This document shows, piece after piece, positions 349 to 38,912 of a stretch of DNA of 43,467 nucleotides. This DNA comes from Planctomycetota bacterium (lineage in GTDB: Bacteria > Planctomycetota > B15-G4 > SIAN01), in NCBI GenBank assembly GCA_031409275.1, contig JANNXA010000017.1:1-43467 (forward strand), written 5' to 3'. Position 1 is the stretch's first letter; the number at the start of each line of letters is the position of its first letter. Position numbers and translations under genes: made by a program. The notes beneath the pieces were generated by a model. That model ran no database searches, was not told the DNA's origin, and saw nothing but the letters and a program-made list of their open reading frames with translations.

Positions 349-555
349 CCATTTGGGTGCAACCCAACGGCCGCCCCCGAACCACCGCATGGTGTCCGAT
401 TGCGTCGCGGAATCAGCCGATCGGCCCGGACCCGTTACGGCCACGTTTCCGGCCGTACACGAGATGCGCTCGTAGGAAGACAGTCACGCTCGTTCACGCT
501 CGTTCGCGGTGACGATGCGCGCGCGTTCAGACCGCATCAGACCGCGTTCGCTCGC
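349..555 (+). repeat. Transposon left-end repeat copy 1, subfamily A (partial)
   Basis: GGGTGCAACCCAACGGCCGCCCCCGAACC...AATCAGCCGATCGG. Similarity to the 13311 and 26616 copies continues to about 555. Possible degenerate right end near 699-714. Confidence 0.85.
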
Positions 556-859
556 ATCCCACGTTCCGCGCCCGTTTCGGAGCCCAGACGCAACACGGCG
601 GGCGCGTCGAAGAAGCCTCTGCGAAGTCGAGGCGACGACCGTCCCGCGGAAGCGCGGCCGTTCGCGCCGACGCTTGAACGCCCACGAAGCAGCGACGCGT
701 TCGGTCGCCGTCGGTTGACGGAGCGACCTTTGCTTTCCGGTCGCAGCGTCCGAGAGTCACCCTGACGGCCGGAGCACGAAGGAACCGATCACCCCCCGAA
801 TCGACAAGCACAGTGCAATCTGCACTTCCCTCCGTCACGGGTGGCCGCTCGCCAGCCGG

Positions 860-1554
860 ATGCGGAGCACCGTGCAGATTTACTCCGCCAGAGTCTTCGC
901 CGCCATCGCCGTCGCCGCGCTCGTCAGCGGCTCTCGCATGGCCTACGCCCAGGACAGCCATTCGACGGAGTTCATCTTCCAGATCGGCAGCACCCTGACG
1001 ACCGCGAGCTCGTCGTCGGTCACGATGATCAACGGCGGTGAGGGCTGCCACATCGATTGGCAGGTCGGCAGTTCGGCGACTCTCGGCGTCTCAACCATCC
1101 TCCTCGCAGCGTGATCGCGCTCGACAGCGTCACGCTGATGACGAGTTCGACCGTGTCGGGCCGTTTGTTCGCCCTGACCGGCGCCGTGACCATGGACTAA
1201 AACGACCTCGCGATCTGCGACTGCGACGCGCGGTGGACCAACGATGGCGCCTGCCACTCGGGCACGCTCGGCGTCCCCACCTTGACTGCGCCGAGCGATC
1301 CGGTGCTCGGCGCGCGATTCTGCGTCGACATCGAGAGCTCATTCACCGCGTTGACGCTCGCCGAGATCGTCGTCGGCTACCTGGAGACGTCGACGCTGTC
1401 GCGCAAAGGCGGCACGCTCCTGCTCGACCCGATGATCTGCATCGATCTCGCGCTCGCACCCGGAATCACGACGGTGTGCGAGGATCTCGACGACGACGAC
1501 ACGATGCGCGGGCTGGCGTTCAGCCCGGGGATCAAGCGGGTCCTCGGCTACTGA
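860..1554 (+). pseudogene. Decayed DUF3494 ice-binding-like protein with VLGY C-terminal module
   Basis: Signal peptide joined to FIFQIGSTLTTASSSSV...WQVGSSATLG, frameshift near 1105, then VIALDSVTL...GRLFALTGAVTMD, in-frame TAA at 1198-1200, then WTNDG...PTLTAPSDPVLG...KRVLGY. Confidence 0.8.
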
Positions 1555-1802
1555 TCACGGCCGGAGGCGACGGCAAGGCGTCCGGAACGTGCGCGTCTTC
1601 GCGGCGCTCGCTCTCCGGCGTCGCTAGTCGGGAGCGCATCGGATCGACGCCGTCGTTCCGACCTCGGATCGTTCCTGCGGTTTGAAGAGACTGCATCGCG
1701 GCGCGGGGGTCACTGGCGACCGATCGAGCCGGGCGAAGACGGCCCTTCGCTGGCACCGGTTGCCCCGATCTCGCGGGGTGAGAACCTCCGCGAGCCGCCG
1801 TC

Positions 1803-1890
1803 CCGCTGCTGGCGCTGGCGGCCTCGGCGAGCACGCTGGGGACCGGCGCATCGTTCAACGGCCGTCTGCTCGCGCAGACTGCGATCACCA
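1803..1890 (+). pseudogene. DUF3494 C-terminal fragment
   Basis: Encodes TLGTGASFNGRLLAQTAIT, near-identical at DNA level to about 3720-3776 (TLATGASINGRLLAQTAVS). Confidence 0.7.
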
Positions 1891-2172
1891 CGAACGACCC
1901 CACGGGCGCCGCGCCGATCCCGTCGTCGATCGCTGCGGATGCGAAAAGCAAGCGACGGGACTTCACGCGCTCGAAGGCCTCATCCGCAGCCGCAGCGTGC
2001 GGCAGCACGATCGATCCCAACACGTCGGCGACGCTCGCGGCCCCGTGTCCAGCGCGGCACGCGGTGTGCCATGGAAACACACGTCACCGAAACTCGACGC
2101 CGCGCCTCGAGCTGCCGATCCACGTCTGATCGACTCCGTCCGCCAGGACGTGCGAGCAGGAAGGAGAAACAC

Positions 2173-2448
2173 ATGAGCCTCCGATCGTGGACGCCGTTCG
2201 CCGGCGTCGCGCTGGCGGTGCTCGCGGGATGCCTGGTTCCGGTCGTCGTCGGCGAACGCGCTCCCTACTGGGACGGCCACTCCGACGTCACGTTCGCGGG
2301 CCACGAGAACTGCGGCGGCTGCGGCCACTACGACGACGGCGGCTGGAACCTCGATCCGGTGGAGCACGTGTACGTGCAGGCCGGCCTCGCGCGACGCAGT
2401 CACCTCCGAGGACGGATCGACCGCGTCGACCGTGCTCGGCGCGAGTGA
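2173..2448 (+). CDS. Small hypothetical lipoprotein with a His/Cys motif
   Basis: AGGAG RBS, ATG at 2173, lipobox VLAGC, GHENCGGCGH motif. The 3' end may be degraded. Confidence 0.5.
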   Translation: MSLRSWTPFAGVALAVLAGCLVPVVVGERAPYWDGHSDVTFAGHENCGGCGHYDDGGWNLDPVEHVYVQAGLARRSHLRGRIDRVDRARRE

Positions 2449-2690
2449 TCGCCGCGACACGACGACTGAGGCCTGCGTCGGCGCCGAAACCGCCGCACGC
2501 ATCGATCCTGGCGGAGCGTGCTCGTTCCAAGGAGCCCGAGGAATCACCTCCTGATCGACTCCCGCCGGCACGCACCGTCCTTTGCCAACTGCAGCAAGAC
2601 CCCTCGCGGAGCGACACGCTCGATCGGCACCACCGATCGCGCGACACGGCTCCGCTGGAACGACCTTCCCTTTCCCATCGATTGGAGTGA

Positions 2691-3812
2691 ATGACCGCGA
2701 TGATCATGATGCAGCTGAAAACAATCCTGCGCGAGCCACGCACCGCCGTGCTCCTGCTCGCGCTCGCCGCCACCGCCTGCTCGCAAGGCGGAAGCAGTGC
2801 CAACGGGAAGAACCTCGGCCTGCCGACCGTGATCTCGAACAGCCCCTCGAATGCCGCGACGGGCGTTCCTCCCAACGCCAGCGTGCGCGCCACGTTCAGC
2901 GAGAAGATGGACTCGACCACGCTCAACACGTCGACGTTCACGCTGTCTACCGGCGTGCTGGCGGTTCCGGTCCCAGGCACGGTCATCTATGCCAACTCGA
3001 CCGCAGTGTTCTGGCCGACGATCCATCTCGCGAACAACGCGACCTACACCGCGACCATCACGACGGGCGTACGCGACCTCTCCTCGCTCGGCATCAAGTT
3101 CAGCCACGTCTGGAGCTTCACCACCGGCGACGTTCTCGCGCCGGGCGTCGCCGTCGACCTCGGGATGGCGGGCGATTTCGCGATCCTCGCCAAGGCCGGG
3201 ATCTCCACCGTGCCGGTCTCCGCCATCACCGGCGACATCGGCGTAAGCCCGGTGGCCGCCTCGGCCATCACCGGCTTTTCGTTGAGCCTCGACGCATCGA
3301 ACGTCTTCTCGACGTCCGCACAGGTCACCGGGAAGGTGTATTCGGCCGACTACGCCGCGCCCACGCCGTCCAACCTGACCACCTCCGTCCATGACATGGA
3401 GACGGCGTTCACCGACGCCGCCGGACGTGCAGCGGACGTGATCGAACTCGGAGCCGGGAACATCGGCGGGCTGACGCTCGCTCCCGGCGTCTACAGATGG
3501 AGCACAGGACTCCTGATCCCGACGGACGTCACCCTCACCGGCAGCGCGACCGACGTCTGGGTCTTTCAGATCGCGCAGGGCCTCACCATGGACAGCGCCA
3601 CGAACGTCGTGCTCTCGGGTGGCGCCCTGCCCGCGAACGTCTTCTGGCAGGTGAGCGGCGTCGTGGCGCTCGACACGACCGCGCACCTCAACGGGATCGT
3701 GCTGTCGGCCACGGCGATCACGCTGGCGACCGGCGCGTCGATCAACGGCCGACTGCTCGCGCAGACTGCCGTCAGCATCGACGGCAGCACGGTCGTCGAA
3801 CCCCTCCCGTGA
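2691..3812 (+). CDS. Ice-binding-like lipoprotein, Ig-like domain + DUF3494
   Basis: Lipobox LAATAC; Ig-like PTVISNSPSNAATGV...ATFSEKMD...WSFTT; DUF3494 motifs FAILAKAGIS, GDIGVSP, LAPGVYRW, WVFQI, NVFWQV, NGRLLAQTAV. Start may be a nearby downstream ATG. Confidence 0.92.
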   Translation: MTAMIMMQLKTILREPRTAVLLLALAATACSQGGSSANGKNLGLPTVISNSPSNAATGVPPNASVRATFSEKMDSTTLNTSTFTLSTGVLAVPVPGTVIYANSTAVFWPTIHLANNATYTATITTGVRDLSSLGIKFSHVWSFTTGDVLAPGVAVDLGMAGDFAILAKAGISTVPVSAITGDIGVSPVAASAITGFSLSLDASNVFSTSAQVTGKVYSADYAAPTPSNLTTSVHDMETAFTDAAGRAADVIELGAGNIGGLTLAPGVYRWSTGLLIPTDVTLTGSATDVWVFQIAQGLTMDSATNVVLSGGALPANVFWQVSGVVALDTTAHLNGIVLSATAITLATGASINGRLLAQTAVSIDGSTVVEPLP

Positions 3813-5686: not shown

Positions 5687-5905
5687 CCTGTCGCGCAAAT
5701 GGAACGGCCGCCGCCGAACCGCTGCCGCCGGTCCGGTTGCATGGCCGAATCGAGCGATCGCTCGCGCGCCGTGCCGCCCATTCTTCACGTCATGGCCGTC
5801 GTGCGCGCCGGTCGGCTCAACCGCCATCCGCAGCGTCCTCGACTACCTCCGCGAAGAGAGTCGCGTCCTCGAGGCGCAGCTCAGACACCGAAGGCTGCGG
5901 CCGGT
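5687..5905 (+). mobile_element. Left-end repeat copy 2 plus frameshifted transposase N-terminal remnant
   Basis: CCTGTCGCGCAAATGGAACGGCCGCCGCCGAACC...; from 5771 VPPILHVMAVVRAGRLNRH / VLDYLREESRVLEAQL, homologous to the 7045 ORF. Confidence 0.75.
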
Positions 5906-5987: not shown

Positions 5988-6515
5988 TCAGCTTCCGGAC
6001 GCCTTTACCTTCGTCGGCGCCGCCTTGCAGCAGTCGCGGCAGAGCTTCTCCATCGCCCGGCAGTGGTCGGCGCACTCCTTCATCTGCGCATCGCCCGTCG
6101 CCTTCTCGCACTGCGTCGCGCACGCCGCGCAGGCATCGGCACACGCCTCGGCCATGATCGTGCAGCAGGGGCCGTTGCGTGACGCGACGCACGCCATCGT
6201 GGCGCACATCGACGCGCAGTCGAGGAGGGCGCGCTGGCTGTCGAGGTGCTCGCGCTTGCCCTCGGCGAGGAGGTCCGTGCAGTGGCTCGCGCAGGCATCG
6301 CAGGACATCGCCGTCTCGCCGGCAGCCTTCGCGAGCGGGCTCATTCCCTGCATGTGCCCGCCGTGACCCGTTGCATCCTTCTCCTGGCCTGCACCGAACT
6401 TGGTGCCGGCAGGTGCGCCCGCCGGCGGAGTCGCCTGCTTGATCGGTGCGAACGCGAGGAGCGCGCCGAGCGACGCCGCAAGAACTCCGATGGTCGAGAT
6501 TCGACGAGTGGTCAT
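5988..6515 (-). CDS. Four-helix-bundle copper storage protein (Csp/DUF326-like), exported
   Basis: GGAG RBS; MTTRR twin-arginine-like signal; many CxxC/CxxxC motifs (CDACASHC, CASMC, CADACAACATQC, CADHC). Confidence 0.85.
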   Translation of the reverse strand: MTTRRISTIGVLAASLGALLAFAPIKQATPPAGAPAGTKFGAGQEKDATGHGGHMQGMSPLAKAAGETAMSCDACASHCTDLLAEGKREHLDSQRALLDCASMCATMACVASRNGPCCTIMAEACADACAACATQCEKATGDAQMKECADHCRAMEKLCRDCCKAAPTKVKASGS

Positions 6516-6872: not shown

Positions 6873-8133
6873 CCCTTAGGGTGCAACCGAACAGCCGCCC
6901 CCGAATCCCGGCATCGTTTCCGATTGCATCGCCGAATCAGCCGATCGGCCGCGGTCCGCTTCAGTCGCAAGATGATCGGCGCCAATCGCATGAGCCCTGA
7001 CGCTCGCCAGGAGGCCGCACCAGCCCGCTTCGCTCCCCCGCCGCGTGCCCCCAATCCCCCACGCCTTCGCCGTCATCCTCGCCGGTTGGCTTAACCGCCA
7101 CCAGCAGCGCGTCCTCGAATACCTGCTCGAAGACAACCGCATCCTTAGGGCGCAGTTCGGCCAACGGAGTCTCCGGCTCACCGACGACGATCGCGTACGA
7201 ATCGCCGTGCGCGGTGTCGCCCTCGGCCGGGAGTGCCTCGACGAGTTCGACACGATCGTCACGACGGAGACGATCCGCCGCTGGCGCCGAAACCTCGTCG
7301 CGCAGCAGTGCACGTTCCATCACCCGCCAACCGCCGGTGAAACGTCGCGACCTCATGCGGCGAATCGCCGCACATATCGTTCCCATGGCACGAGAGAAAC
7401 GCACCTGGGGTACGACCGTCTCGAGGACGTCGTCAAGACTCTCGGGCACGTCGTCGCGGCGAACACGATCCGCAACATTCGTCGCCGCCACGGCATCGAC
7501 CCCGCGCCGGAACGATGGCCGGCACCACACCGAATCGCGACGTTGATTTCATGAAACAGGTCGAGCCAACCTGACCGACTGCATCGAAGGCTTCCTGCGC
7601 AAGAAGTGGTTCCTAAACCTTGATCGCGACAGCAAATTCAGTGGGGCCTTCCGGGGCGTGCTCGACTCTAACGGCATCCGCATGGTCCTCTCCCCCGCAC
7701 GTGCGCCCGATTGCGACGCGTTCGCTAAGCGGTTCGTGCGGTCGATCAAGCGCGAGTGCCTGAACAAGATGATCTTCATCGGGCCGGGATCGTTGCGGCA
7801 CGCGCTGGCAGAGTTGATCGCGCACTACACAGCTGAACGACCGCAACAGGGCATCGGCAACGTGCTCATCGAGCCGCGCACTGACGTCACAGCCTCGACC
7901 GGACGAGTCACGCGCAACTCATGGCTCGGAGGGCGTCTGTCGTACTACCACCGCCTCGCGGCATAGACTTCGGACGCCTTCGGATCCCTCGAGCTCGTCG
8001 CGATTCGATTGCGGCGAATGCCTCGTCATGCGAACGTCGGCCGAGTTTCACGTACGGGAGTCATCCAGCAGGACCGCTCAAAAGTGCTCGAGCGCCTCGA
8101 TTCCGCCACGCTCGTTCGGTGGCACTCTTCGGG
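6873..8133 (+). mobile_element. Decayed integrase-core (rve/DDE, IS481/IS3-like) element with both ends; left-end copy 3
   Basis: IRL CCCTTAGGGTGCAACCGAAC (6873-6892) vs IRR GTTCGGTGGCACTCTTCGGG (8114-8133), 16/20 inverted match; encloses a transposase pseudogene. Confidence 0.85.
7045..7966 (+). pseudogene. Transposase (integrase core domain), frameshifted and internally deleted
   Basis: LAGWLNRHQQRVLEYLLEDNRILRAQ, TIVTTETIRRW, GIDPAPER, LDRDSKF, PARAPDCDAFAKRFVRSIKRECL, HYTAERPQQGIGN, LGGRLSYYHR; several frame changes. Confidence 0.9.
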
Positions 8134-8210
8134 CGTCCCGGTCCACTAGTTCGACTGCCACGTAGACGATCCGCAGTTCGCCGACGCGATGGCCGAACAG
8201 TTGCTCGCGA

Positions 8211-9578
8211 TCATGGGGACGGGCGGCACGAAGGCGGCGAGACGACGCCGGCAGACGGCGTCGCTTCGACGAGGTGCTGAACGATCCGATCGAGCACGCC
8301 GTCGTCCTCGTAGTAGCCACTGTGCCGCAGGCGGATCTGCGCCTTGAACTCTTCGACGACGTCGCGCAGCGATGGAAGGACCCCGCTCGGCTGCGGCATG
8401 AGGCGCAGCGCGCATTCTCGACCCGCCTCCGCCGGCGCAACGGGCGCTCGCATCGCCAGCTCGACGAGCTCACGGCGAAGCAGCTGCGGCGGGTAGTAGG
8501 AGTCCGCGGTGCCGGACGCGACTCCGTAGTCGAACCACAGTGCGCGCCACACCGAAACGCCGAGCGAGCCGACTTCGAGCGCCATCTCCAGGACTTTCAG
8601 GAAGAGGAACTTCACGAAGGGCCGGAGGAAGAGCCACTCGAGCAGCCGCTGCGTTCGCGAAAACTGGTTGGCCACATACTCGGAATAGAGCGCCGCCGGC
8701 GCCGACGCGATCTGCAGCATGAGCTCTGCTTCGTCGTTGCGCGTCGTCAGCAAGAGGATCGGCCGTGAATGCAGGCTCTTGCGAAGCTCGGGCCCCGACG
8801 GCCCATACGCGCACCCGCTGGCGCGTCGCCGCAGCAGACCGAATGGACGGAACATGAAGCACACGAACCACCACCCCGCATCGACGCACCATGCCGCGAG
8901 CGCAAACCACCACCCGAACAACACCAGGCCCGGTAGTGCCGAGACGATGGCTTTCGTCGTGTCGCGGTCGTCCTCCTCGAGGGTAACGCCATTCGGCAGC
9001 ACCATCACGCCATCGGACCGCACCGTGATCTGCTCGTCGGGCGAGTACTCGCCGGTGAAGGCGAGGTACCCGAGTTCCACGACGCAGAACGCGCCGAGCG
9101 CAATCGCGAGAAAAACCGCTGCGGCGGAGAGCACGAGGCGCGCGGCGCGGCACGCTGGCCGCACGGTGATGAGCGGTGTCCCGAGCATGACGACCCCGCC
9201 CGCTCGCACCCGGCCACCAAGTCGGCGCAGCACTTCAAGCACGACGTTGCCGCCATGAGAGTGCGCCACGAAGTGGACCGTCAGTGGGTCGGCGGCGGTC
9301 GCACAGACTCGGTTCGCAACTTGCTCGAGCGCGCTCGCCAGCCGCTTCGCTGCGACGCGCCGGTCCTTATCGCGATTGCGCCCCGACCAGGTGAAGTCCG
9401 CGTAGTCGAGTTCGGCGTCGAGCGCCGGCTTCCAGACAGTGTTAGCGCAGCCCGACTGCGCCATGCGCTGCTCGAGCCGATCAGCGAACGTCTGCGTCTC
9501 GCGGTTGCCGAGCCGCCACCAGTCCGCCTCCGCCGCGAAGGTCCCGTGGACGATGACCGTGATCGAGCGCGCCGTCAT
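8211..9578 (-). CDS. Membrane-associated alpha/beta-hydrolase-fold protein
   Basis: VIVHGTF, FTWSGRN, nucleophile elbow AHSHGGN, MLGTP, late HSGYY; internal hydrophobic segments; GGAG RBS. Confidence 0.75.
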   Translation of the reverse strand: MTARSITVIVHGTFAAEADWWRLGNRETQTFADRLEQRMAQSGCANTVWKPALDAELDYADFTWSGRNRDKDRRVAAKRLASALEQVANRVCATAADPLTVHFVAHSHGGNVVLEVLRRLGGRVRAGGVVMLGTPLITVRPACRAARLVLSAAAVFLAIALGAFCVVELGYLAFTGEYSPDEQITVRSDGVMVLPNGVTLEEDDRDTTKAIVSALPGLVLFGWWFALAAWCVDAGWWFVCFMFRPFGLLRRRASGCAYGPSGPELRKSLHSRPILLLTTRNDEAELMLQIASAPAALYSEYVANQFSRTQRLLEWLFLRPFVKFLFLKVLEMALEVGSLGVSVWRALWFDYGVASGTADSYYPPQLLRRELVELAMRAPVAPAEAGRECALRLMPQPSGVLPSLRDVVEEFKAQIRLRHSGYYEDDGVLDRIVQHLVEATPSAGVVSPPSCRPSP

Positions 9579-11606: not shown

Positions 11607-13205
11607 CCTCAGCATCTCTCCGACGATCTCCGGAGATGGTCGGTTCGTCGTTTTCTCCAGCCTCGCCTCAAACCTCGTCGCAGGGGACACAAACAGCGCC
11701 TACGACATCTTCAGCCTCGATCGATGGTCCGGGGTCGTTGAGCGCGTCAGCGTCGATTCGTCTGGCGCCGAGGGCAACGGACACAGCGGAAGCGGTCTCT
11801 ATTCGTCGCCATCACCGGCACCAGCTGTCTCGGCCGATGGACAGGTGATCGCATTCGAGAGAGTTACGCCTCGAATCTCGTGGTTGGCGACGTCAATGGG
11901 CAGCCAGACGTCTTCGTCCACGACCGTGTCACGGGAGCGACTGAACGCATCAGCGTGGGCGTCCTCGGCATGGAAGGCAATGCCGGTAGTTACTGGCCCT
12001 CGATCTCGGCAGACGGTCGACACGTCGCGTTCCAGAGCGATGCGACGAACCTCGTTCCGAGTGACGCGAACGGTCACATGGACGTCTTTGTCCATGATCG
12101 AGCGACTGGAACGACAGAACGTGTGAGCCTGGCCTCCAGTGGCGCCGAAGCAGACCTTCAGAGCTACTACCCTATGATCTCTGCTGACGGGCAACTCGTC
12201 GCGTTCTCGAGCCTCGCGTGGAACCTGATCCCAAGCCGATCCAACGGATACCAGCACGTCTACGTGCACGACCGATCGACGGCCACCACCGAACTCGTGA
12301 GCGTTGACGAATCGGCTACGTCAATGGGGAACTACAACAGCTACTCACCGTCTATTTCGGGAGATGGGCGAGTCGTCGCCTTCATCAGCTTCGCCACGAA
12401 CCTCGTGAACGGCGACGCGAACGGCTGCTACGACGTCTTCGCCCGCGATCTGGGAAGTGGCACGACAGAGCGCGTCAGCGTGGACTCATCGGGCGCAGAG
12501 GCCGGCGCGAGCAGTTCTTACGATGGGATCCCGTCGATTTCTTCCGACGGAAGCGTCGTAGCGTTCCAGAGCGACGCGATGAATCTCGTGACCGGCGACA
12601 TGAACGGCGTGCCGGACGTATTCGTTCACGATCGAAACACTGGCACTACCGAGCGCGTCAGCGTTGATTCTGCCGGCGCCGAAAGCAAAGGCGCAAGCGG
12701 GCTGAGCGCGTCGATTTCAGGTGATGGTCATGCGATCGCATTCTCGAGCATCGCCTCAGATCTCATCCCGGCCGATTTCAACGCCGTCGAAGACGTTTTC
12801 GTCCATCAACTCTGCGCCGTCGACGCCTCCTGGTCCAACTACGGCGCCGGCTTCCCCGGCAAGAACGGCATCCCGAGCCTGACCGCCCAGAGCGACCCCA
12901 TCCTCGGCACCACGCTCTCCGTCGACATGGGGTCGTCGGCAAAGGGTTGGTCCATCGCTGCCCTGCTCGTCGGAACGCAGGAGGCCTCGATCCCGATGCG
13001 AAAGGGCGGCGACCTGCGGGTCCTCCTCGACATCGCCGTAATCATCCTGGCCTTACCGTCGACCGGCCTGACGATCGACGAGGACATCGACGACGATCGG
13101 ACGCTGTGCGGGCTGGAGTTCTTCGCGCAGTCCTTCGTCGTCGATCCGGACGCGGCGAAAGGACAGTCGGCGAGCGCGGGGTTGAAGCTGGTGCTGGGGT
13201 ACTGA
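11607..13205 (+). pseudogene. TolB/PD40-like beta-propeller protein with VLGY C-terminal module; 5' end missing, one frameshift
   Basis: Repeats PSISADGRxVAFxSxAxNLVxGDxNGxxDVFVHDR...TERVSV; +2 frameshift in GAGAGAG at 11857-11863; no signal peptide or start remains upstream. Confidence 0.85.
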
Positions 13206-13310: not shown

Positions 13311-13975
13311 CCCGTGGCGTGCAACTGAACGGCCGCCCCCGAACCACGGCATTGAGCCCGACTTCTCGGCGCAATCAGCCAATCGGCCCCGAGCAGGTAC
13401 GGCCCCGCGTCCGGCCGCACGCGAAAAGCGCTCGTCGGAGCACGGTCACGCTCCTGTACGCTCGTTCGCGCTGACCGCAAGCGCGTTCGAACTGCATCAG
13501 AACGCGTTCTCTCGCCGTCAACCAGAGAACGTCTTCGAGTCCTACTCGGTCGCTTTTCGGAACCGGCCTCTTCGGGCGTCCTCGCCTCTCTCTCGCGACG
13601 CTCCTTTCCAGGAGAAGCTGTCGACCGGAACGCCGATGTTCGCGTCAGCGATGCGCTTGGCGCGGTCCGGCCGCGGCTGTTTACCGGCCCAGCGCACTCT
13701 CCGACCCGCAGCGAGTTCGTGAGCTTCCAACTCCGAAAATTCGCGTCACCGCTTGGGGTACCCGATCACCACGACGCGAACCGAGAACACGCGCCGTTTT
13801 CGGGATCGTCTTTTCTCGCGCGACAGGCGCGCCTTGGGACGACGCTCGCGAGCGCGCGACGAGCGGCCGCCCTCGACCACCGGGGCTGCAGCGCTGACGG
13901 GCGAGGAGCCCATTGGCTTCCCGAGCGATGCGGACACGCGAACTGCTCTCTGCTCGTGTTCGGCTGTTGATTGGG
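13311..13975 (+). mobile_element. Left-end copy 4; about 665-bp non-coding subfamily A element
   Basis: Starts CCCGTGGCGTGCAACTGAACGGCCGCCCCCGAACC; colinear with 26616-27285 over its whole length. Confidence 0.85.
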
Positions 13976-14123
13976 CGTCCGAGTCCAACCACGGCTCGAA
14001 AGCGAACGACTTCGCGATCGCGGTCAACAGGCCACGAACCGAAAACTCCTGGCGGCGTCGACAGCGTTGACGGCCAGGGGGCACGATTCGGACGCGGTTG
14101 AAGTCTCGCACCAGCCGCGGCAC

Positions 14124-16728: not shown

Positions 16729-17523
16729 AGACGTTGCTGCTCGCACCGGATGCCGTTTTGCCTCGGCCGTCCGCGGCGAGTCGCTGCACGGCCGCGGTAT
16801 GGCGGCGCTGCTGCTCGCCGGCGCCGGAATGCTGGTCGCAGCGTGCGTCGGTGCGATGGTCACCCGCACCGCGCGCTCGTCGCCCCGCCGGCGAATCGCC
16901 GTGCGCGAAGCGCTGCCACGCGCTGGCCGTTTCGATCTCGCCCTTCGCCTCACGCAAGGGCGTTGCAGTGAAGATCAGAACGAACGATCAAGCGGCGGGG
17001 CCGAATGTTCGTGGCGCGCCGTCCTTAATCGGCGCCAGCGCCTCCTCGATGCGATCGTGACGCGACGCTCGACTTCCAGGAAGTCGCGCCCGCGTTCAGC
17101 TGGTCGAGCAACGGGGTCATCGGCGAACAGCGAAGTGAACGTCGAGTCTCGATGAGCGGGTGAAGGTCGAGCTGCTTCCACGAGTTCGCGGTCGTGCCGC
17201 ATTCGATCCCGCCGGGCGTCGTTCCGGATGCGGGTCAGTACACCAGGCTCGCGAGCGACCTGCGACCAGCCGCCTTCCACCACAGCGAGCCCGCTCTTTT
17301 CTCGCATTGACGGATCGATCGAGAGCGCCGCGAAGATCGGCAAGTCGGTTCGCTGTTCGCATCCGACGTTTGGCGGCCCGGTCGATAAGCCGTTGCGAAC
17401 CTGCGCCCCTGTGCCGCGACGCGGCCGTCCGTGATTCCGCCTCGGGGTGCATGCGCCCGACGCCAGTGCAACAGAGGAGGAGGCCCGCGCCACTTCCACC
17501 CCCCACAGGCTGCTCCACGCTCA

Positions 17524-17576
17524 GGCTGTCGAGATCTCGACAGAAAAGAACCGCATGTCGTGGTGAGGAGCAGGGC
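17524..17576 (+). repeat. About 50-bp dispersed repeat, also at 29720-29772
   Basis: GGCTGTCGAGATCTCGACAGAAAAGAACCGCATGTCGTGGTGAGGAGCAG vs GGCTGCCGACATCTCGTCAGAAAACAACAGAATGTCGTGGTGAGGAGCAG; GGTGAGGAGCAGGGC recurs at 27575-27589. Confidence 0.75.
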
Positions 17577-17712
17577 GATTTTCGATCGACTCCTCCGGCG
17601 TCACCGCCCGTAGCGTGCAGGGAAGCGCGACGCCGGCGGTGAATTCGATGACTTCGCGGCGCGCCTGGCGGCGAGGGATCGGGTGTTCGGTCAAGCGGTC
17701 GGGAGGTGATCC

Positions 17713-23983: not shown

Positions 23984-24012
23984 GGCGTAGGGTGCAACCG
24001 AACGGCCGTCCG
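23984..24012 (+). repeat. Left-end repeat copy 5 (terminal ~28 bp only)
   Basis: CGTAGGGTGCAACCGAACGGCCG, 44 bp after the stop of the upstream gene. Confidence 0.8.
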
Positions 24013-24907: not shown

Positions 24908-25621
24908 CAGCCCGTCGGCGAAAACCCGGTTTTCGTGACCGTGAGACGGTCGTACTTGCGAAGCACCCAGCGTGTTCCATCTTCGGCAGCGAAGGCGGCC
25001 GCGGCCTTCGGACGCGCCATCGCGAGTCGCCTCATCTGGTCGCTGAATCGGGTGTCGCCGACTTCATCGAGGAGCTCGGCCGAGCGACGAACGGACACGA
25101 AACCCGCCTTCGACGACTCCGCGAAGTCGGGGATGGATGCCAAGGAGAATCCGCGAGTACTCGGCATCTCGCGCGGTTGAACGCGTTTACAAACCAGGAA
25201 CAATCGAAACGTCGGGAGCCGCGCAACGACCGTAGCCTCCCGGACCGGCCGCGGCACGGCCGTTGCAGTCTCCGGGTGAGTGACGCAACGCACCGTTGCG
25301 AGACTCTCTGGAGATGATCATGCGTAAGTGGTGGAAGCTTGTGAATCTCGTCGCGGCCTGCTCGACCCTCGGGTTCTGCATCTCGACCTGATTCGTGCCG
25401 TCCTGATCGGGCTCCAGCTCCTCGCGGCGTCGTGTGCCGGGAGCGAGCGGGAGGTCCGGCGCGATTTGTTGCATTCCTACACTGTCAATCACCAACAGTT
25501 TCCACGGACCGCCGGCGTTTCTTATTGGCTGATATCGTCGAGGTCAGTCGGTTCGGCGTGCTGCAGAACTGGAAGAGATCTTTCGCGCGATGCCGGGCTC
25601 GACCCAGAGCGCAAGGCCGAA

Positions 25622-25895
25622 CCCGTAGCGTGTAACCGGACGTCCGCCTCCGACTCCCGGCATCGTGTCCGACTTCTAGGCGGAATCAGCCGATCGGCCC
25701 CGAGCCGCTTCAGCCGCCACGAGAACGGCGCTGATCCCATGAGCCCCCGCCGCTCGCTCCGTGGCCGCGCCAGTCCGCTACGGTCCCGCGCCCCATGCCG
25801 CCGATCCTCCACGCATTCGCCGCGGCGATGCACGTGATCCAGAAGGAGCTGCTCTCGCGCCTGACCTACCGGCGCTACCTCGCACTCTCGCGCGG
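25622..25895 (+). mobile_element. Left-end copy 6; subfamily B with transposase start stub
   Basis: CCCGTAGCGTGTAACCGGACG...; ATG 25795 MPPILHAFA matches the transposase start MPPIPHAFA; colinear with 29381-29655. Confidence 0.85.
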
Positions 25896-25973
25896 CGGGA
25901 AGCGAGCGGCGCGGCAGCGATCCGGCGCTACCGGTGCTGGACAGCACGCCACCACCGTGCGACGCTGCCTCCC

Positions 25974-26600
25974 ATGTGCGCACACATCCACGCCAACTTC
26001 CAGGCCGCCGCGGCTGCGGAACTCCTGCACGCGAAGCTCGATGCGCGCGGCTGGGTCCCTTCGCCCCACGTCGTCCCGACTCAGCCGCTCCTGGCGCTCC
26101 GCCGCGCCACCGAGGGGCGCGTGCTCGAAAGCCTCCACTGGGGCCTCATCCCGTCGTGGGCGCACGACATGAAGATCGGCGCCAAGACGTTCAATGCGCG
26201 CGCCGACAGCCTCGACGAGAAGCCGTCATTCCGACCCGCGTTCCGCGCGCGCCGATGCGCGCTCCTCGTGAGCGGCTTCTACGAGTGGGCCACCGTCGAC
26301 GGGAAGCGCGTGCCCTACCTCTTCAGCGTGCCGGGCCACGCCATCTTCTGCCTCGCCGGGCTCTACGAGACGTGGCGCCCTTCCCAAGGCGGTGCCGAAG
26401 TCCACTCGTGCACGATCATCACGACGGCGGCGAATGCACAGACGCTGCCGATCCACGATCGAATGCCGGTGATCCTCGGCACGGAGGTGCTCGATCGCTG
26501 GCTCGATCCGGCCACGCCGCACGACGCTCTGCCGGGCCTGCTCGTTCCCTTCGCGCTGCCGATGACGATCGAGCACGCAACCATCGCGGCGAAGCACTGA
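25974..26600 (+). CDS. SOS response-associated peptidase (SRAP; YedK/HMCES family)
   Basis: Met-Cys start; LHWGLIPSW, FNARADSL, KPSFR, RRC, GFYEW, LAGLYE, CTIITT, IHDRMPVIL. Confidence 0.92.
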   Translation: MCAHIHANFQAAAAAELLHAKLDARGWVPSPHVVPTQPLLALRRATEGRVLESLHWGLIPSWAHDMKIGAKTFNARADSLDEKPSFRPAFRARRCALLVSGFYEWATVDGKRVPYLFSVPGHAIFCLAGLYETWRPSQGGAEVHSCTIITTAANAQTLPIHDRMPVILGTEVLDRWLDPATPHDALPGLLVPFALPMTIEHATIAAKH

Positions 26601-26615
26601 GAGCCTGAGAAACAC

Positions 26616-27285
26616 CCTGTAGGGTGCAGCCGAACGCCGCCCCCGAACCACTGCATCGTGTCCGATCTTTCGACGGAATCAGCCGATCGGCCCCGAGTCG
26701 TGACAGCCACGTTTCCGGCCCTACGCGAGATGCGTTCGTAGGAGGACAATCACGCTCGCTCACGCTCGTTCGCGTTGGCGATGCAAGCGCGGTCAACCCG
26801 CATCAGAACGCGTTCTCCCGCCGTCAACCAGAGAACCAGTTCGAGTCCTACTCGGTCCATTTGCGGAACCGGCCTCGCTTCACGATCTCGCCGCTCTCTC
26901 GCGACGCTCCGCCCCAGAAGAAGCTGTCAACCGGGAGCGCCGATGTTCGCACCAACGATGCGCTTGATGGGGTCCGGCCGCAGCTGTTAACCAGCCCCGC
27001 GCTCTCTCCGAACGACAGAGAGTTCGAAAGCTTCCGACGCCCAAACTTCGCGTCACCGCTTGGGGTACCCGATCACCACGACGCGAACAGAGCGCGCGCC
27101 ATTTTCGGGATCGTCGTATCTCGTCTCGCGCGACAGGCGCAACTTGGGACGAGGCTCGCGAGCGCGCTACGAGCGGCCTGCGTCAACCGTTTCGGCCGCT
27201 GCGATGACTGCCGAGGAGCGCATTGGCTCCCCGAGTGCTTCGCAAAAGCAAACGGCTAGCTGTTCGCGTTCGGCGGTCCCTCGGG
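26616..27285 (+). mobile_element. Left-end copy 7; about 670-bp non-coding subfamily A element
   Basis: CCTGTAGGGTGCAGCCGAACG...; colinear with 13311-13975; begins 15 bp after the SRAP stop. Right boundary approximate. Confidence 0.85.
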
Positions 27286-27770
27286 CACCGAGTAGGACTC
27301 GAAACCGTGCTCTTGGTCGACGCGGGCGCATCCCGACCCATCGAATACCAAGCCGTCCCCTCCAGCACCGCTCCGCCCTCCAAGCAGTTTGAACCGTCGC
27401 ACGGCGTAACGCGCTCCGACGCCGCCCGAGTCATTGAAGCGCCGGCGAGAAGCCCGGTCGGAAGCGTGAACGTCGCCGTCGCGGCTGACGTCATCGAGCG
27501 TCGACGGACAGATGCCGTCATTTTCGGCGCTGCGATCCGCAGATTCGGAGACAGCCCTTCGCGTGCACCATTCGGGTGAGGAGCAGGGCAAGCGATTCCT
27601 GATCCCGAGGCGTCGCTAGGCCATCGACCGGGGTCGACGACGTGTGAACCGGCGCTATCGACTTGGGCGAGCATCGCCACCTCGCTTGGGAATGGTCGGG
27701 CTGGTCGAAATGCTCGGTCGAGTTCGAGATCCGGCTCGTGATCGAATCGGATCGTCGCGGAGGAATGTCG

Positions 27771-29258
27771 ATGTTGTCGAATCCGTTGAAGCGGTCGTGT
27801 CCGACACCGGGGCTTGCGGTCGGGCGCGCGGTCGCAATCGCGGCGGTGATCGTCGCGGTGAATGGCGCCCACGCCGTCGCCCAGACCATCACCGCGATCG
27901 GCCCGCTCGTTCCTCTCGGCCCTCCAGTGGTCCCGGCCGGATTGAACAGCGATGGCACGGTCGTCGTTGGCTGGGCTCAGAATGGCGTCGACCTCCGCGC
28001 CGTGCGGTGGACCAGCACTGGCGGGCCGCAGGACCTCGGAGCGCCTCCCGGCGCGGTCCACGCCTACGCGAACGGCGTGAGCGGTGATGGTCTGACGGTC
28101 GTCGGCGACGAACACGGCGGGCCGAATGGCGGCGGCGCGTTCCTCTGGACCAGCGCAGGCGGGATGCAAGAGCTCGGATCGTCACTTGGTTTTGTGACGT
28201 CGAACGTGACCGCCGTGAGCGAGGACGGCGTGACGGTCGCGGGCTCTGGCCAGGATTCGAACGGCGAATTCCATTCGTTTCTGTGGACCAGCGCAGGCGG
28301 AATGCAGCTGCTCGATTCGCTCGCGCTGTTCGGCGGTGAGAGCACGGTGAATGTGAACCAGGACGGCAGCGCGATCGTCGGCAACATGTTCGGCGGCGTA
28401 TTCCTCTGGACCAGCACCGCGGGCATGCAGAACCTCGGCCTGCTGCCGGGTCGGAACGGAGCCGTGGCTGCCGACGTGAACTCCGACGGGACGGTGGCTG
28501 TGGGGAACAGCTACAGCTGGAGCGGCAGCACCGGCTTCACGTTCATCGATGCGTTCGGTTGGACCGCGTCAGGCGGGATGCAGGACCTTGGCGTACTGCC
28601 CGGCGATGGCTTCTCCTATTCCACAGGCGTCAACGGAGATGGATCGATCGTCGTTGGGAACAGTTACAGCCTCGTCGCCGGCTACGTCGGCCGCGCGTTC
28701 CTCTGGACGCCGGTGCTCGGAATGGTCGAGCTGAACGCCCATCTCGCCGCGCTCGGCCTCGACCTCACGGGCTGGGACCTCGGCGAAGTGAAGGGAATCA
28801 GCGTGGACGGCTCCGCGCTCTTCGGCTTCGGAACGCTGAATGGCCAGCCGACCGGCTGGGTCGTGAACGGTCTATGCGAAGCGTCGTGGTCGAACTACGG
28901 CATCGGATTTCCCGGGACGCTCGGCATCCCGTCGCTCACCGCGCAGGGCGACCCGGTGCTCGGCACGACGCTGAACGTCTACGTGGGCAACTCCGCGACC
29001 ACGGCGACGATCGCCGCGATCCTAGTCGGCACCCAACCGACCTCAGTCCCGATGGGCAAGGGCGGTGATCTGCTCGTCGTCCCGTTGATCACCTTCCTGA
29101 TCCCACTCCCGGTCGGCGGGACGACGCTCGCCGAGGACATCGACAACGACGCCGCGTTGTGCGGGCTCGAGTTCTTCGTCCAATCGCTCGTCGCGGATCG
29201 CGGCGCAGCGAAGAGGCAATCAGCGAGCGCGGGTTTGAAGCTGGTGCTGGGGTACTGA
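27771..29258 (+). CDS. Secreted HAF-type extracellular repeat protein with VLGY C-terminal module
   Basis: GGAGG RBS; signal ending AHAVAQ; repeats VxxDGxxVVG...AFLWTSAGGMQDLG; C-terminal WSNYGIGFPGTLGIPSL...GLKLVLGY. Confidence 0.9.
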   Translation: MLSNPLKRSCPTPGLAVGRAVAIAAVIVAVNGAHAVAQTITAIGPLVPLGPPVVPAGLNSDGTVVVGWAQNGVDLRAVRWTSTGGPQDLGAPPGAVHAYANGVSGDGLTVVGDEHGGPNGGGAFLWTSAGGMQELGSSLGFVTSNVTAVSEDGVTVAGSGQDSNGEFHSFLWTSAGGMQLLDSLALFGGESTVNVNQDGSAIVGNMFGGVFLWTSTAGMQNLGLLPGRNGAVAADVNSDGTVAVGNSYSWSGSTGFTFIDAFGWTASGGMQDLGVLPGDGFSYSTGVNGDGSIVVGNSYSLVAGYVGRAFLWTPVLGMVELNAHLAALGLDLTGWDLGEVKGISVDGSALFGFGTLNGQPTGWVVNGLCEASWSNYGIGFPGTLGIPSLTAQGDPVLGTTLNVYVGNSATTATIAAILVGTQPTSVPMGKGGDLLVVPLITFLIPLPVGGTTLAEDIDNDAALCGLEFFVQSLVADRGAAKRQSASAGLKLVLGY

Positions 29259-29380
29259 CGAGGTCCGCATCCCGAACCAAGATCACGACGTGTAACGGAT
29301 GGCGCGCGGGCGGAGGTGCATGAGGGCGCGCAGTTCGTCCGCCATCGCGTCGACGAAGGCCGCATCGTTGATGTGGCAGT

Positions 29381-29655
29381 CCCGTAGGGTGCAACCGAAC
29401 GGCCGCCCCCGATTCCCGGCCTCGTGTCCGATTGCACGGCCGAGTCAACCGATCGACTTCGAGCCGCTTCAGCCGCCACGGGAGCGGCGCTGATCCCATG
29501 AACCCACGACGTTCGACCCGTGGCCGCGCCAGCGCGCGAACGTCCCGCGCGCCCCATGCCGCCGATCCTCCAGGCATTCGCCGCGGCGATGCACGTGAAC
29601 CAGAAGGAGCCGCTATCGCGCCCGACCTAACGGCGCTACCTCGCACTCTCGCGCG
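29381..29655 (+). mobile_element. Left-end copy 8; subfamily B
   Basis: CCCGTAGGGTGCAACCGAACGGCCGCCCCCGA; colinear with 25622-25895 including the MPPILQAFAAAMH stub. Confidence 0.85.
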
Positions 29656-29934
29656 ACGCCGTCCAAGTCACCGAATCGACCCTCACCCCCACCGATCGCA
29701 ACGGACTTCTCCCCGCCCGGGCTGCCGACATCTCGTCAGAAAACAACAGAATGTCGTGGTGAGGAGCAGCGCAGCGGTTGCTCGAGTACCACCGAGATGA
29801 GGTGTTCCGGCAGGCGCGCAGGCGGGTGGGATCGCCGCGCGGCGGAGGATCGCGTGCCGCTCGAACGCGATCGGCCGACGCGACGCCGACCATCTGAGCC
29901 GTCGCTCGACCGCAGCAGCGACCGCGCCGCACTT

Positions 29935-35448: not shown

Positions 35449-35478
35449 CGGGCATCCGTCACGTCGAGCGAGTCTTGA

Positions 35479-35605
35479 CCCGTAGGGTGCAACCGAACGG
35501 CCGCCCCCGAATCCCGGCATCGAGTCCGATTGCACGGCGGGATCGGTCGATCGGTCGCGGTCCGCTGCAGCCGAGACAAGAGTGGCGCTGATCCCATGAG
35601 CCCGC
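35479..35605 (+). repeat. Left-end repeat copy 9
   Basis: CCCGTAGGGTGCAACCGAACGGCCGCCCCCGAATCCCGGCATCG...GGCGCTGATCCCATGAGCCC; 30 bp after the sulfatase stop. Confidence 0.9.
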
Positions 35606-35689
35606 AACGCCCGCCCCATCGCCGCGTCAGCGGTAGTAAGCACTGAGCCGGTGGACTGGTTCTTTTTGGGCAGGTCACTCGCTGCACTG

Positions 35690-35812
35690 CGCATCGCCGA
35701 GAGCGGCACCCCGCACCGCGAGTCGCACTCGCTGGTCGTCGGTCAGCGGCAGCCTCCGGCGACCGAGCTGAGCCTTGAGGATGCGGTTCTCCTCGCGGAG
35801 GCAGTCGAGGAG
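35690..35812 (-). pseudogene. Inverted transposase N-terminal fragment
   Basis: [39 protein letters not shown], homologous to the 7045 ORF. Confidence 0.85.
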
Positions 35813-36198
35813 CGGGGACCTGGGGGCGGCGGAGCGTAAGGGGAGTGCGCGGCCATGGCACCAGCAACGCAGGCGATGCGCGCCGTTCGGTGTCGGGACG
35901 AGTTGCGCCGCGAGGCGGTCGAGCAGCAAGTCGGAGGCGCCGACGGTGCACGCAGGCACGCCTCTCAATCGAGACCCAGAGTTCGAGCCCCGCTGCGTAC
36001 CACGTGACCGCTCAACGCGAACAGCGAGGGGTCAGGCGCAGCTTCCCGCCACTGAACTGCGGATGGCGCGCGCGGTTTGCTGTCGGAAGTGGTCGAGTGC
36101 GCTTGGCTGGCGGTGGCTGAGCCAGCGGCAGGGATGACTGAGAGAACATGGAGGCCCGGCGTGCGGGCAGTGGTAGGCGCGCTTGGGGAGGTCGAGCG

Positions 36199-37035
36199 AT
36201 GTGGACTGCACTTTTCGCGCGTCCCGAACGCGCGCGAGGAATCGCCGCGACGATCCTCGTGCTTGGGGCGGCAGGGGCGTTGGCCGGATGCGGCACTCTT
36301 CCGAACGGCCGACGCTGGGGGGACGACGTGACCCTTTGGCCGAGCGGAGCCCGGCTCGGTCGCGCCGCCTGGAATGCTCTTTCGCATCCGATGACCTGGG
36401 CGCCAATCGCGGGCGCCGCGGTGCTCCAGATCGACCGCTGGGACGAGCGGATCTCGGATTGGGCGACCGATACGACTCCGCTCTTCGGCTCGGTCGAGAA
36501 AGCCGAGGATGCACGTGGATGGACCGGCAACGCCTCGGACCTCCTCTACTTCGCGAGCGTGATCGCCACTCCGAGCGGAGACGAACCGCTCGACTGGGCA
36601 TGGGCCAAGACCAAGGGGCTTGCCGTCGGCATGGGCGCGCGGGTCGCAACGCTCACGAGCGTCGATCTGCTGAAGGTTGCCGTCGGCCGGGAGCGGCCGG
36701 ACGGGAGCAACGACAAGAGCTTCCCCTCGCAGCACGCGGCGGCCATGTCGGTCAACGCGACGCTCACGTCGCAGAACCTGCGGTCCATGTCGCTTCCCGT
36801 CGGAGCGAGGTACTCGCTCGACGCCGGATCGATTGGACTCGCGGCCTTCGGCTCGTGGAGCCGGGTCGAGGCCGACGGCCACTATCCATCCGACGTCCTG
36901 GCCGGCGTCGCGCTCGGGCATTTCCTTGCGCGATTCTTCGAAGAGGCGTTCCTCGGGCTCGCCGAGGGGCCGCTCCAGGTCGAGCCGGTCGCGATGCCGG
37001 ACCTGTTCGGGCTCGCGTTCAGCTGGCGATTCTGA
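36199..37035 (+). CDS. PAP2-superfamily phosphatase with lipoprotein signal
   Basis: GGAGG RBS; lipobox ALAGC; KVAVGRERP, SFPSQH, SRVEADGHYPSDV. Confidence 0.88.
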   Translation: MWTALFARPERARGIAATILVLGAAGALAGCGTLPNGRRWGDDVTLWPSGARLGRAAWNALSHPMTWAPIAGAAVLQIDRWDERISDWATDTTPLFGSVEKAEDARGWTGNASDLLYFASVIATPSGDEPLDWAWAKTKGLAVGMGARVATLTSVDLLKVAVGRERPDGSNDKSFPSQHAAAMSVNATLTSQNLRSMSLPVGARYSLDAGSIGLAAFGSWSRVEADGHYPSDVLAGVALGHFLARFFEEAFLGLAEGPLQVEPVAMPDLFGLAFSWRF

Positions 37036-37056
37036 GCCGCACCCGGCTCAGAATCG
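37027..37056. terminator. 13-bp perfect hairpin spanning both stop codons of convergent genes
   Basis: CGATTCTGAGCCG-CACC-CGGCTCAGAATCG; no U-tract. Confidence 0.55.
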
Positions 37057-37893
37057 AAGGCCGAGCTCGACGGCGAATCCTCGGTGCTCGCCGGCGAAGG
37101 CTTTGGCGGAGGCGAACACCGGGAGTTCGTCGGGTCGGTAGGCGAGACCGACATACCCACCGTAGTTGCCGGCCTCGAACTCCATGTCGTTATCGAACCC
37201 GTGGTCGATCAATCCTGACATCACGTCGAAGAGCGCACCCACGGTGATCTTCATGTCGGCGACGTCGATTCCGACACCGGCGTGGAGCTGATAGTTGTAG
37301 TAGTTGATGTCGCTCTCGACGTCGAACAGCTTCCCCGCTGACTTGTCGAGGAACTTCACGTCGCCTTCGCCTCGCGAGTACGAGTAATTGGCGCCATAGT
37401 CGAGGATGAACTTCGCGTTGCCCCATTGCGCGACTTGGGGCATGCCATCGAACGAGATCCGGACGCCGACAAGGTCGAAGTCGTCGAGCATCTCGAACTG
37501 CTCACTGAAGGCCGCAACACCGACCCCGAGCGCTTCGTTCCCGAAGCGCGCCTCGATGCCGCTGCGACTCCGGTCGGTTTCGAGGTCGATCTCGTCGAGC
37601 TTGATGGCGATCTTGCTTTTGAACTTCGCGCGGATCACATCGCGCCGCACCGCCTCCAACTCGATGTCCTCGTGGAAAGCGGACAGGCGGAAGGCGTAGC
37701 CCTCATCGCTCCCTTCGGCGCGCGTCCACGCAAGCTCCGCGAAGCGCTCGACGTTCAACGCGAACGCCGGCGCGACGTACGGCGACGTGATGGCGTTGCT
37801 GGGCGCCACCGCAACCGGCGCGCTGGGAGGATCGCCGCCTAGGGCCGCCAAAATGCACGGAACGGCCGATCCGACGATGACACTTGTGAGCAT
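37048..37893 (-). CDS. Putative outer membrane beta-barrel protein
   Basis: GGAG RBS; alternating amphipathic strands (GIEARFG, ILDYGANYSY, YQLHAGVGID, GYVGLAYR); terminal ELGLRF. Confidence 0.7.
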   Translation of the reverse strand: MLTSVIVGSAVPCILAALGGDPPSAPVAVAPSNAITSPYVAPAFALNVERFAELAWTRAEGSDEGYAFRLSAFHEDIELEAVRRDVIRAKFKSKIAIKLDEIDLETDRSRSGIEARFGNEALGVGVAAFSEQFEMLDDFDLVGVRISFDGMPQVAQWGNAKFILDYGANYSYSRGEGDVKFLDKSAGKLFDVESDINYYNYQLHAGVGIDVADMKITVGALFDVMSGLIDHGFDNDMEFEAGNYGGYVGLAYRPDELPVFASAKAFAGEHRGFAVELGLRF

Positions 37894-38145
37894 TGCCCGC
37901 TCCTGGACGTGGTGCCGCGCCGATGGATCGCGTTTGCGCCAACCCGCGCTGGAGGCATGTCGAGAGGTCGCCCGCTCAAGTCACTCCTGAGCACGCCCTC
38001 CTTCCGATCGCGCGATGCGCTGCTTCCGCAACCTGCATGCCGGCCCATCACGCCCACAAACGATGATTCGCAACGCGATGCAACGCCCTTTTCTTCAAAA
38101 GGGCGACACGAGGTCGCGCCGCGGGCACGACTCTGACAGGGGAAG

Positions 38146-38170
38146 CGTTCATGGCGCAACCGAACGGCCG
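38146..38170 (+). repeat. Left-end repeat copy 10 (degenerate, short)
   Basis: GCGCAACCGAACGGCCG. Confidence 0.5.
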
Positions 38171-38534
38171 AGGCTGAGTCGCGTTCTGAAGTGCCGTTGA
38201 ATGAGGTGTCTGGCCGATTCAAGAACCAGCGTGTCAGCAGACCGTCGATGCACCCCGCCATGTCCTGGATTCGTCTGGCCGCGCGAGTCGTGCTGGTGAT
38301 GGCCGGCGCGACGTCGGCGGCGCGCGGGCAATCGCGCAAGCCCTGCCGGAACTACCACTGCGATGGCGTCGATCGGTGCGACTGGACCGTCTCGAAGACG
38401 CAGTCGCCGACCTACGAATCGCTCGACGAGTCGAAGCGAGCGGGGCGCTCGCGGGCTCAGTGCCGCGGCCATCGCGCGCTGGAAGGTGCACCACACTCGC
38501 CAGTGCCCGGCATGCACGCCCACCGAAGGACGCG

Positions 38535-38912
38535 GTCGCGCGCAACCTGACCGACTGCGTCGATGGCTTCCTGCGGAAGAAGCGATTCTTGATCCTCGAT
38601 CGCGACGGGAAGTTCAGCGCGGAGTTCCGCGGTGTCCCCGAAGACCACGGCATCGAGATGGTGCTCTGTCCCGCACGCGCGCCCAACTGCAACGCCTTCG
38701 CCGAGCGGTTCGTGCGTCAGCTGCTACCACCGCCTCGCGGCGTAACTCTCGCGACGCATTCGGATCCCGCGCCCTCGTCGCGATTCGATCGCGGCGAATC
38801 CCTTGTCGTGCGAGCGCCGGTCGAGTTTCACGCACGGGAATCAGCCAACCGACCCGCTAAATGGCGTCCGTGCGTTCGATTCAGCCACGTTTCTTCGACT
38901 GCACCACACGGG
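38535..38912 (+). mobile_element. Transposase core remnant plus right end
   Basis: VARNLTDCVDGFLRKKRFLILDRDGKF...PARAPNCNAFAERFVR, deletion to YHRLAA-stop; 3' region colinear with 7966-8133; IRR CTTCGACTGCACCACACGGG ends at 38912. Confidence 0.85.

Follow-up and report, generated by a model that had tools for sequence, protein, structure and literature searches.

Co-oriented insertion-sequence ends in a planctomycete gene island: a likely IS26-like graveyard rather than an integron

The DNA analysed here, a 43,467-nucleotide stretch forming the entire contig C17 (JANNXA010000017.1) of a Planctomycetota bacterium and hereafter called the window, is punctuated by copies of one short repeat lying mostly in a single orientation between unrelated genes, which raises the question of what kind of system assembles such an array. 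A first-pass annotation had taken the repeats for ends of a DDE transposon, and had likened the locus to an integron built on one such end, in which elements may target their own end or a fixed strand and stack captured genes. All of the repeat copies that it placed are present and they are indeed DDE-element ends; the integron analogy did not hold. The array is likely a graveyard of decayed insertion sequences (IS), IS26-like in behaviour, and neither an integron nor a new programmable cassette system. We consider it probable, with moderate confidence, that the island was built by repeated end-mediated adjacent deletion, together with likely movement of blocks bracketed by direct-repeat copies. 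Genomes, contigs and loci are cited below by working numbers, the window's own genome being G000 (5.6 Mb in 55 contigs).

The repeat is the terminal inverted repeat of a ~1.4-kb DDE insertion sequence with a single open reading frame (ORF) of 355 aa. No intact transposase had been noticed at first, which holds for the window, but two were found on searching the genome (C18:13746-14807 and C55:11107-12165). HTH and rve_3 domains are present in 24 of the 24 aligned family members, in which residues D176, D242 and E277 (DD35E) are invariant. The predicted structure (mean pLDDT 71.9, pTM 0.47) places the modelled fold nearest to retroviral integrases, IS21 IstA and TnsB, and sequence searches of the PDB returned nothing significant. 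The family is very large, with 7370 of the 8000 protein clusters scored matching at E 1e-50 or better, and has matches in 32 of 61 related genomes; it was found in environmental Planctomycetota, Acidobacteriota and Gammaproteobacteria, where the sources name its members merely ‘transposase’ or ‘integrase core domain protein’. The literature searched held no description of its ends, target preference or behaviour, and the family could still be listed in ISfinder or TnCentral. Across 77 loci the tip is CGT at both ends (CGT...ACG) and the two bases outside it are variable, so that the tip first given as CCCGT begins two bases too far out; a TGT tip occurs only in two decayed window copies. The flanks are themselves biased: in the Acidobacteriota genomes G061-G063 (n=88) position -2 is never T and position -4 is A in 45, and the same bias is seen in 58 flanks from other genomes.

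A genome-wide scan, as the first-pass annotation had proposed, was made with separate left-end and right-end profiles, for which three of eight left-end and two of eight right-end training copies came from the window. At a threshold of at least 13 bits it recovered 36 ends in G000, 13 of them in the window, and none in the reversed genome; co-oriented arrays recur in other genomes. The window holds nine left and four right ends plus one 11-bp left-end stub. The ratio of left to right ends is 9:4 in the window (p 0.27), 14:9 outside it and 23:13 overall (p 0.13), an excess that is not significant, and the separate profiles rule out a left-end-only system. Plus-strand elements contribute 12 of the 13 window ends. 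The initial count of ten out of ten had included the copy at 38146, which is the right end of a minus-strand element; with a weak right end at 27574 it also adds to the two right ends recognised before, at 8133 and 38912. The 13-bp stub proposed at 17607 is plausible with moderate support: its exact 13-mer occurs six times in the genome, the other five at recognised ends, against none in the reversed control, while its 11-bp core occurs 11 times against six in that control. The ends, left and right alike, bound multi-gene blocks of 0.8-6.4 kb with mixed gene orientation and gene stubs at the tips. The description of the cargo as mostly exported is roughly borne out by a hydrophobic N-terminal stretch in 16 of 21 hand-picked window ORFs, whose start sites were guessed.

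That these tips are cut points in native DNA is evident from relatives. Among the sequences compared, an uninterrupted reference was found for four of the 14 window tips, and each of the four is a breakpoint in native DNA. Tips 8131, 25624 and 29383 cut genes exactly at the tip, and 27574 was placed within 12 bp, as a BLAST boundary. The UPF0261 gene truncated by the left end at 29383 is intact and element-free in G003:C3, where the same DNA continues into it; another UPF0261 copy, truncated by the right end at 8131, has uninterrupted homologues in G000:C24, G004:C38 and G001:C76; and the phospholipase-D gene truncated by the left end at 25624 is uninterrupted in G004:C46. Since the ends at 27574 (right) and 29383 (left) bound one and the same block, positions 27575-29382 represent a native 1.8-kb segment lying between two same-direction ends. 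Spacers of an array in G003:C11 match unrelated G000 loci. Nested truncations that begin at a tip and end inside another copy were identified at C55:6805, C55:12340 and L036, and own-family DNA abuts three of 52 tips.

Comparison with relatives also identified one shared block. The segment 38911-43467 is 97.2% identical over 4572 bp to contig C39 of the congener G003, against a median of 76.5% among fetched G003-type loci compared with G000 (91 matches of at least 600 bp), where one other match reaches 96.5%. The block in G003:C39 also begins at a right-end stub, but its upstream neighbour differs, being a ThuA-family ORF. These alignments support a transfer of the block between the two species, its boundary being marked by a right end. 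For the rest of the window cargo, no long matches were found in five relatives (40 candidates scored per genome).

In G061-G063, young and near-identical copies form intact direct-repeat arrays of up to five in 17 kb (L112; also L108 and L106) separated by unique spacers of 1-3 kb, and direct-repeat arrays around unique segments also occur in G003:C11, G006:C29 and the window. Target duplications of at least 4 bp were found at none of the 34 complete copies in G061-G063, and at the 29 copies examined elsewhere in the family no match reaches 3 bp. Over both sets, no duplication length from 1 to 9 bp exceeded permutation; 2-bp matches numbered 6/34 against 3.8 expected and 8/29 against 5.7 (p 0.16), counts with which a blunt or 2-bp duplication mode may be compatible. 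Adjacent deletion and inter-copy recombination are named as frequent causes of missing duplications in a passage of PMC11708052. Simple insertions were found in 0 of 24 testable young copies in G061-G063, the uninterrupted homologue of one flank never being continued by the other flank. Moreover, the base at +2 past the cut is G in only 1 of 31 natural continuations versus 22 of 34 real right flanks, which indicates that each flank has its own target; the asymmetry recurs in copies, most of them solitary, from 29 other loci (+2 G in 22/29). Apart from one tandem junction, no reciprocal partner flanks were found on other copies in the fetched regions, and unresolved inversions or cointegrates within one chromosome were rejected on that ground. 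A tandem dimer in which right and left ends lie 1 bp apart, at L112:1495-1497 and also in L108, is a candidate active junction. The block L112:2915-5593 had no homologue in the three other genomes searched, and hence no empty site.

The orientation of the ends is organised on a scale larger than the window. The probability of about 0.002 first attached to their co-orientation assumes independent insertions, an assumption that breaks down since whole contigs and replichores have a common orientation. Counting neighbours within 30 kb, with G000 left out and pieces of one broken gene entered once, close subfamily members are co-oriented in 45 of 53 pairs and in nine of ten genomes (54/70 with distant relatives included). 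On G062:C4, with two short matches and a further one from a different contig excluded, a single switch at ~2.2 Mb, from plus before it to minus after it, describes 28 of 30 left ends and 11 of 12 clusters; GC skew flips at the same place (twenty 20-kb samples, two of them contrary on the left arm). Elements occupy the G-rich strand in G061 and G062; in G000, 34 of 36 ends derive from C-rich-strand elements by local skew (three weak C7 matches included), and tRNA genes favour the G-rich strand 37:22. Two dispersed G000 repeats lack strand bias (13:20 and 10:10). The islands also contain a second DDE family, which is biased in the same way (7:1). Flank skew over 57 single loci is 29:28, which, together with the opposite preferences of G000 and G061/G062, rules out a universal leading- or lagging-strand preference. 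In one region of G068:C1, two subfamilies run mostly in opposite directions. Window co-orientation is thus inherited from a larger scale, and cassette logic is unnecessary to account for it.

Under the adjacent-deletion reading that we favour, the transposase would often join one of the element's ends to a site close by on the same DNA molecule, deleting what lies in between, and would be halted only by a useful gene or by chance. Deletion and segment movement of this kind are among the outcomes of intramolecular transposition that a section of PMC7986276 describes for IS6-family elements. Segments between same-direction copies could leave and re-enter as pseudo-compound or circular units, re-entry probably taking place by recombination at an existing copy, which would preserve direction. 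Direction itself would be set at the replichore scale, either through fork-linked integration or through survival of polarity-preserving products only, with a polarity specific to each lineage. Later deletions that do not start at tips would then erode element interiors, leaving solo left and solo right ends.

Several observations weigh against this reading. The inner breakpoints of solo ends lie away from tips, and the transposase does not account for them; the other highly similar segment shared with the congener (L033:13324-15027 versus G000:C33 123078-124781, 96.5%) has no detected family end in G000. Neighbour orientation is mixed in G066, G067 and G069, and the skew of single loci is evenly split, as noted above. 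Furthermore, the end of G000 contig C2 overlaps the start of C27 and the three C7 matches are weak; assembly may have split a single physical region into the several G000 islands, which would lower the independence of the counts. An IS5-like control element in the same Acidobacteriota genomes shows duplications in 0 of 9 full copies (read by eye) and, in G062, similar strand bias and zones, so that the pattern owes something to the genomes themselves. Inter-copy recombination, the other published cause of missing duplications, also counts on this side. Finally, reads were checked through contigs from four runs of one study, two of them possibly the source sample. Contigs from two deep runs cover the window evenly and no joint at a tip is among the joints listed, so the array looks static in those runs; neither are reordered blocks, population variants or circles at tips among them, although contigs of this kind are not evidence of absence.

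Some of these points favour an ordinary hotspot, in which a transposase with no tendency to delete makes simple strand-biased insertions, with no or a 2-bp duplication, in dispensable DNA, the flanks of the copies being scrambled later by host recombination between copies and by random decay. Orientation at the level of the replichore fits it, and family-specific bias relative to replication has been reported for other IS in part of PMC3971601; the IS5-like control, the 7:1 orientation of the second DDE family and the slight excess of 2-bp matches over permutation fit it as well. The null model of the first-pass annotation was of this type, and it does explain clustering and orientation, but without active end-mediated deletion it does not explain the precise breakpoints. 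Nor does a hotspot predict the lack of simple insertions among near-identical copies, the flank asymmetry of mostly solitary copies, or tips that truncate other copies of the same element, and recombination between copies should have left reciprocal flanks in the fetched regions. We therefore regard it as unlikely. A targeted conservative reaction like that of IS26, in which a circle carrying one copy and its cargo is joined beside an existing copy, always in the same direction, would account for the intact arrays of L112, L108 and L106 and for the right-left junction with its 1-bp spacer; according to PMC4196232, neither a new junction nor a duplication results from the reaction in IS26. It explains neither the replichore orientation shared by distant clusters nor new cut points within genes, is indistinguishable in sequence from RecA-driven integration, and finds no reordered blocks among the joints listed; as the main builder of the array it seems to us distinctly improbable. 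An integron-like array, with the left end alone serving as a recurring attachment site for captured and selected genes, appears very improbable indeed. The nine left against four right ends of the window, several of the left ends lying 16-125 bp past the stop codon of a same-strand gene, would suit such a system, but the excess is not significant and left and right ends are about equal in G062. Right ends bound blocks too, the blocks are multi-gene and of mixed orientation with useless gene stubs, no recombinase was found among the 34 window ORFs scanned, and self-targeting has left a trace at only three of 52 tips.

A stronger form of the adjacent-deletion reading, which we regard as doubtful, makes the transposase an obligate rearranger: each end would be joined to a separately chosen target and simple insertions would almost never occur, so that its sole means of spread would be to form the junction of a deletion, a duplication or a block transfer, and it would swap blocks at existing copies as IS26 does. 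If true, environmental bacteria would possess a second, independent and very widespread gene-stacking engine. More generally, should the tips carve out and stack native genes, as the data suggest, island building of the IS26 type would extend beyond the IS6 family and beyond clinical plasmids, and a short motif would predict where the boundaries of many Planctomycetota and Acidobacteriota mosaic islands lie. The intact copies make the mechanism directly testable.

Table 1. Element-derived and flanking features of the window.
Feature	Position	Strand	Remark
Left end and first ~200 bp of a non-coding type B derivative	351..555	+	profile scan
Diverged left end and 5' piece of transposase gene	5689..5901	+	
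Near-complete element: left end, internally deleted transposase, right end	6875..8131	+	rve_3 in 7658-7963
3' stub of UPF0261 gene, cut at right-end tip	8132..8239	+	family name from G003 homologue
Type B derivative: left end and ~650 bp conserved non-coding interior	13313..14029	+	right end lost
Remnant of a second, different DDE element	17500..17576	+	423-aa transposase
11-bp left-end stub	17609..17619	+	moderate support
26-bp left-end stub	23986..24011	+	
Phospholipase-D (cardiolipin-synthase-like) gene fragment, cut at left-end tip	25246..25623	+	
Left end and transposase start fused to 3' end of small host gene	25624..25897	+	
Type B derivative, then transposase 3' remnant and weak right end	26618..27574	+	right end 16 bits, tip 27574
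Carved block: intact exported-type gene and 3' stub of convergent UPF0261 gene	27575..29382	+	between right and left ends
Left end, second copy of fused unit	29383..29658	+	86% to 25622-25897
Second remnant of the other DDE element	29692..29785	+	
Left end stopping ahead of transposase start	35481..35631	+	
Inverted 5' piece of transposase gene	35696..35829	-	
Right end of minus-strand element	38148..38208	-	28.3 bits as a right end, none as a left end
Transposase 3' remnant and right end	38535..38910	+	
Block of Ser/Thr kinase, PDZ protein and ECF sigma factor	38911..43467	not assigned	

Among the copies listed in Table 1, the type B derivative (a left end followed by ~650 bp of non-coding DNA) accounts for those at 349, 13311 and 26616; it also occurs on C55 and C35 of G000 and in G003 (C23), and it was found in three of 42 genomes, all of one genus. 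Its interior (13400-14029 and 26705-27330) is conserved non-coding DNA with nested inverted repeats; lying behind the left end, it may form a second, nested miniature element. A structured RNA was rejected there: Rfam gave no match and covariation gave no support (term +7.35, double change in 9/166 pairs, six sequences only). A sigma-70 promoter scan of the ends at 25500-27800 found none, with a model that may not fit this host. The fusion of left end, transposase start and small host gene 3' end is present twice with different left flanks, which indicates that the truncated unit was copied after it had formed. The second DDE family, with its 423-aa transposase, resides on C53, C2, C55 and C27 of G000 and has no significant BLAST match to the first; one right end in G003 cuts into an element of this family.

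Other features of the window include two adjacent dispersed repeats at 1-305, inside which the contig starts (20 and 33 copies genome-wide, without strand bias). Two pieces at 38254-38545, between two right ends, are ~95% identical to G000:C44 8771-9157 and represent a recent partial duplication. The ORFs at 1282-1554, 11880-13205 and 27765-29258 have in common a C-terminal domain of ~120 aa that has no Pfam match, recurs on C16, C25, C51 and C55 and in congeners, and is possibly a lineage-specific sorting or anchoring domain. We also identified an intact lipoprotein gene, ice-binding-like (PF11999) and carrying an Ig-like domain, with fragments of two paralogues upstream of it (860-1114, 1814-1923 and 2691-3812). 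A Cys-rich helical exported protein without a Pfam match, which may resemble four-helix copper storage proteins, is encoded at 5988-6511 on the minus strand.

Among known systems, the closest likeness in behaviour is to IS26 and the IS6 family, IS26 being the element that builds up resistance regions through repeated deletions and exchanges of blocks. In common with the arrays, pseudo-compound transposons and translocatable units of that family (PMC7986276, PMC4196232), directly repeated copies are interleaved with unique segments, flanking duplications are lost, DNA between element and target is deleted, and segments move with one or two copies. According to PMC4196232, the RecA-independent targeted conservative route of IS26 leaves no sequence signature. 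The present element differs in its transposase lineage (rve_3/HTH, 355 aa) and its CGT...ACG ends, in the IS6-type 8-bp duplication being found at 0 of 63 copies, in an orientation that follows the replichore, and in its environmental hosts; no IS6 model is among the NCBIfam matches to the transposase at E 0.1.

By sequence the best family match is IS481 (NF033577, 108.4 bits, E 4.6e-31), with which the element has in common a single ORF and a DD35E integrase core. IS481 elements end in TGT...ACA and duplicate 6 bp of target. The score is under half of the family cut-off of 224, the tips are CGT...ACG, and there is no 4-6 bp duplication. A passage in PMC11708052 gives 4 bp for the IS481 duplication and reports an IS481 copy lacking one at a rearrangement junction. 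The second-best match is IS3 (NF033516, 94.4 bits against a cut-off of 160), which the element resembles in that its N-terminal coiled-coil helix, HTH_21 and rve follow one another as in a fused OrfAB. IS3 termini are TG...CA; those of the element are not, its ORF is continuous with no frameshift, and no regular duplication is found. The domain order is given in an excerpt of PMC2909936, and a fused orfA-orfB raises adjacent deletions according to a passage in PMC11708052. The one abutted right-left junction with its 1-bp spacer (L112/L108) may recall copy-out/paste-in elements (IS911, IS3) and the tandem dimers of IS21 and IS30; abutted-end junctions of the former are described in part of PMC7780238.

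The likeness to integrons is superficial, consisting of a short site that recurs between unrelated genes. Integron cassettes are mostly single-gene and same-direction, each closed by attC. Here the recurring site is a transposon terminal repeat and the chemistry is DDE rather than tyrosine, and an IntI-type tyrosine recombinase was not found among the 34 window ORFs scanned, the rest of the genome not having been searched for IntI. The blocks derive from native DNA severed at arbitrary positions and include gene stubs, and 9 of the 21 hand-picked window ORFs lie on the minus strand. By the criteria tested, the element is thus not a member of IS6, IS3 or IS481, nor is it part of an integron, and it works like an IS26 array.

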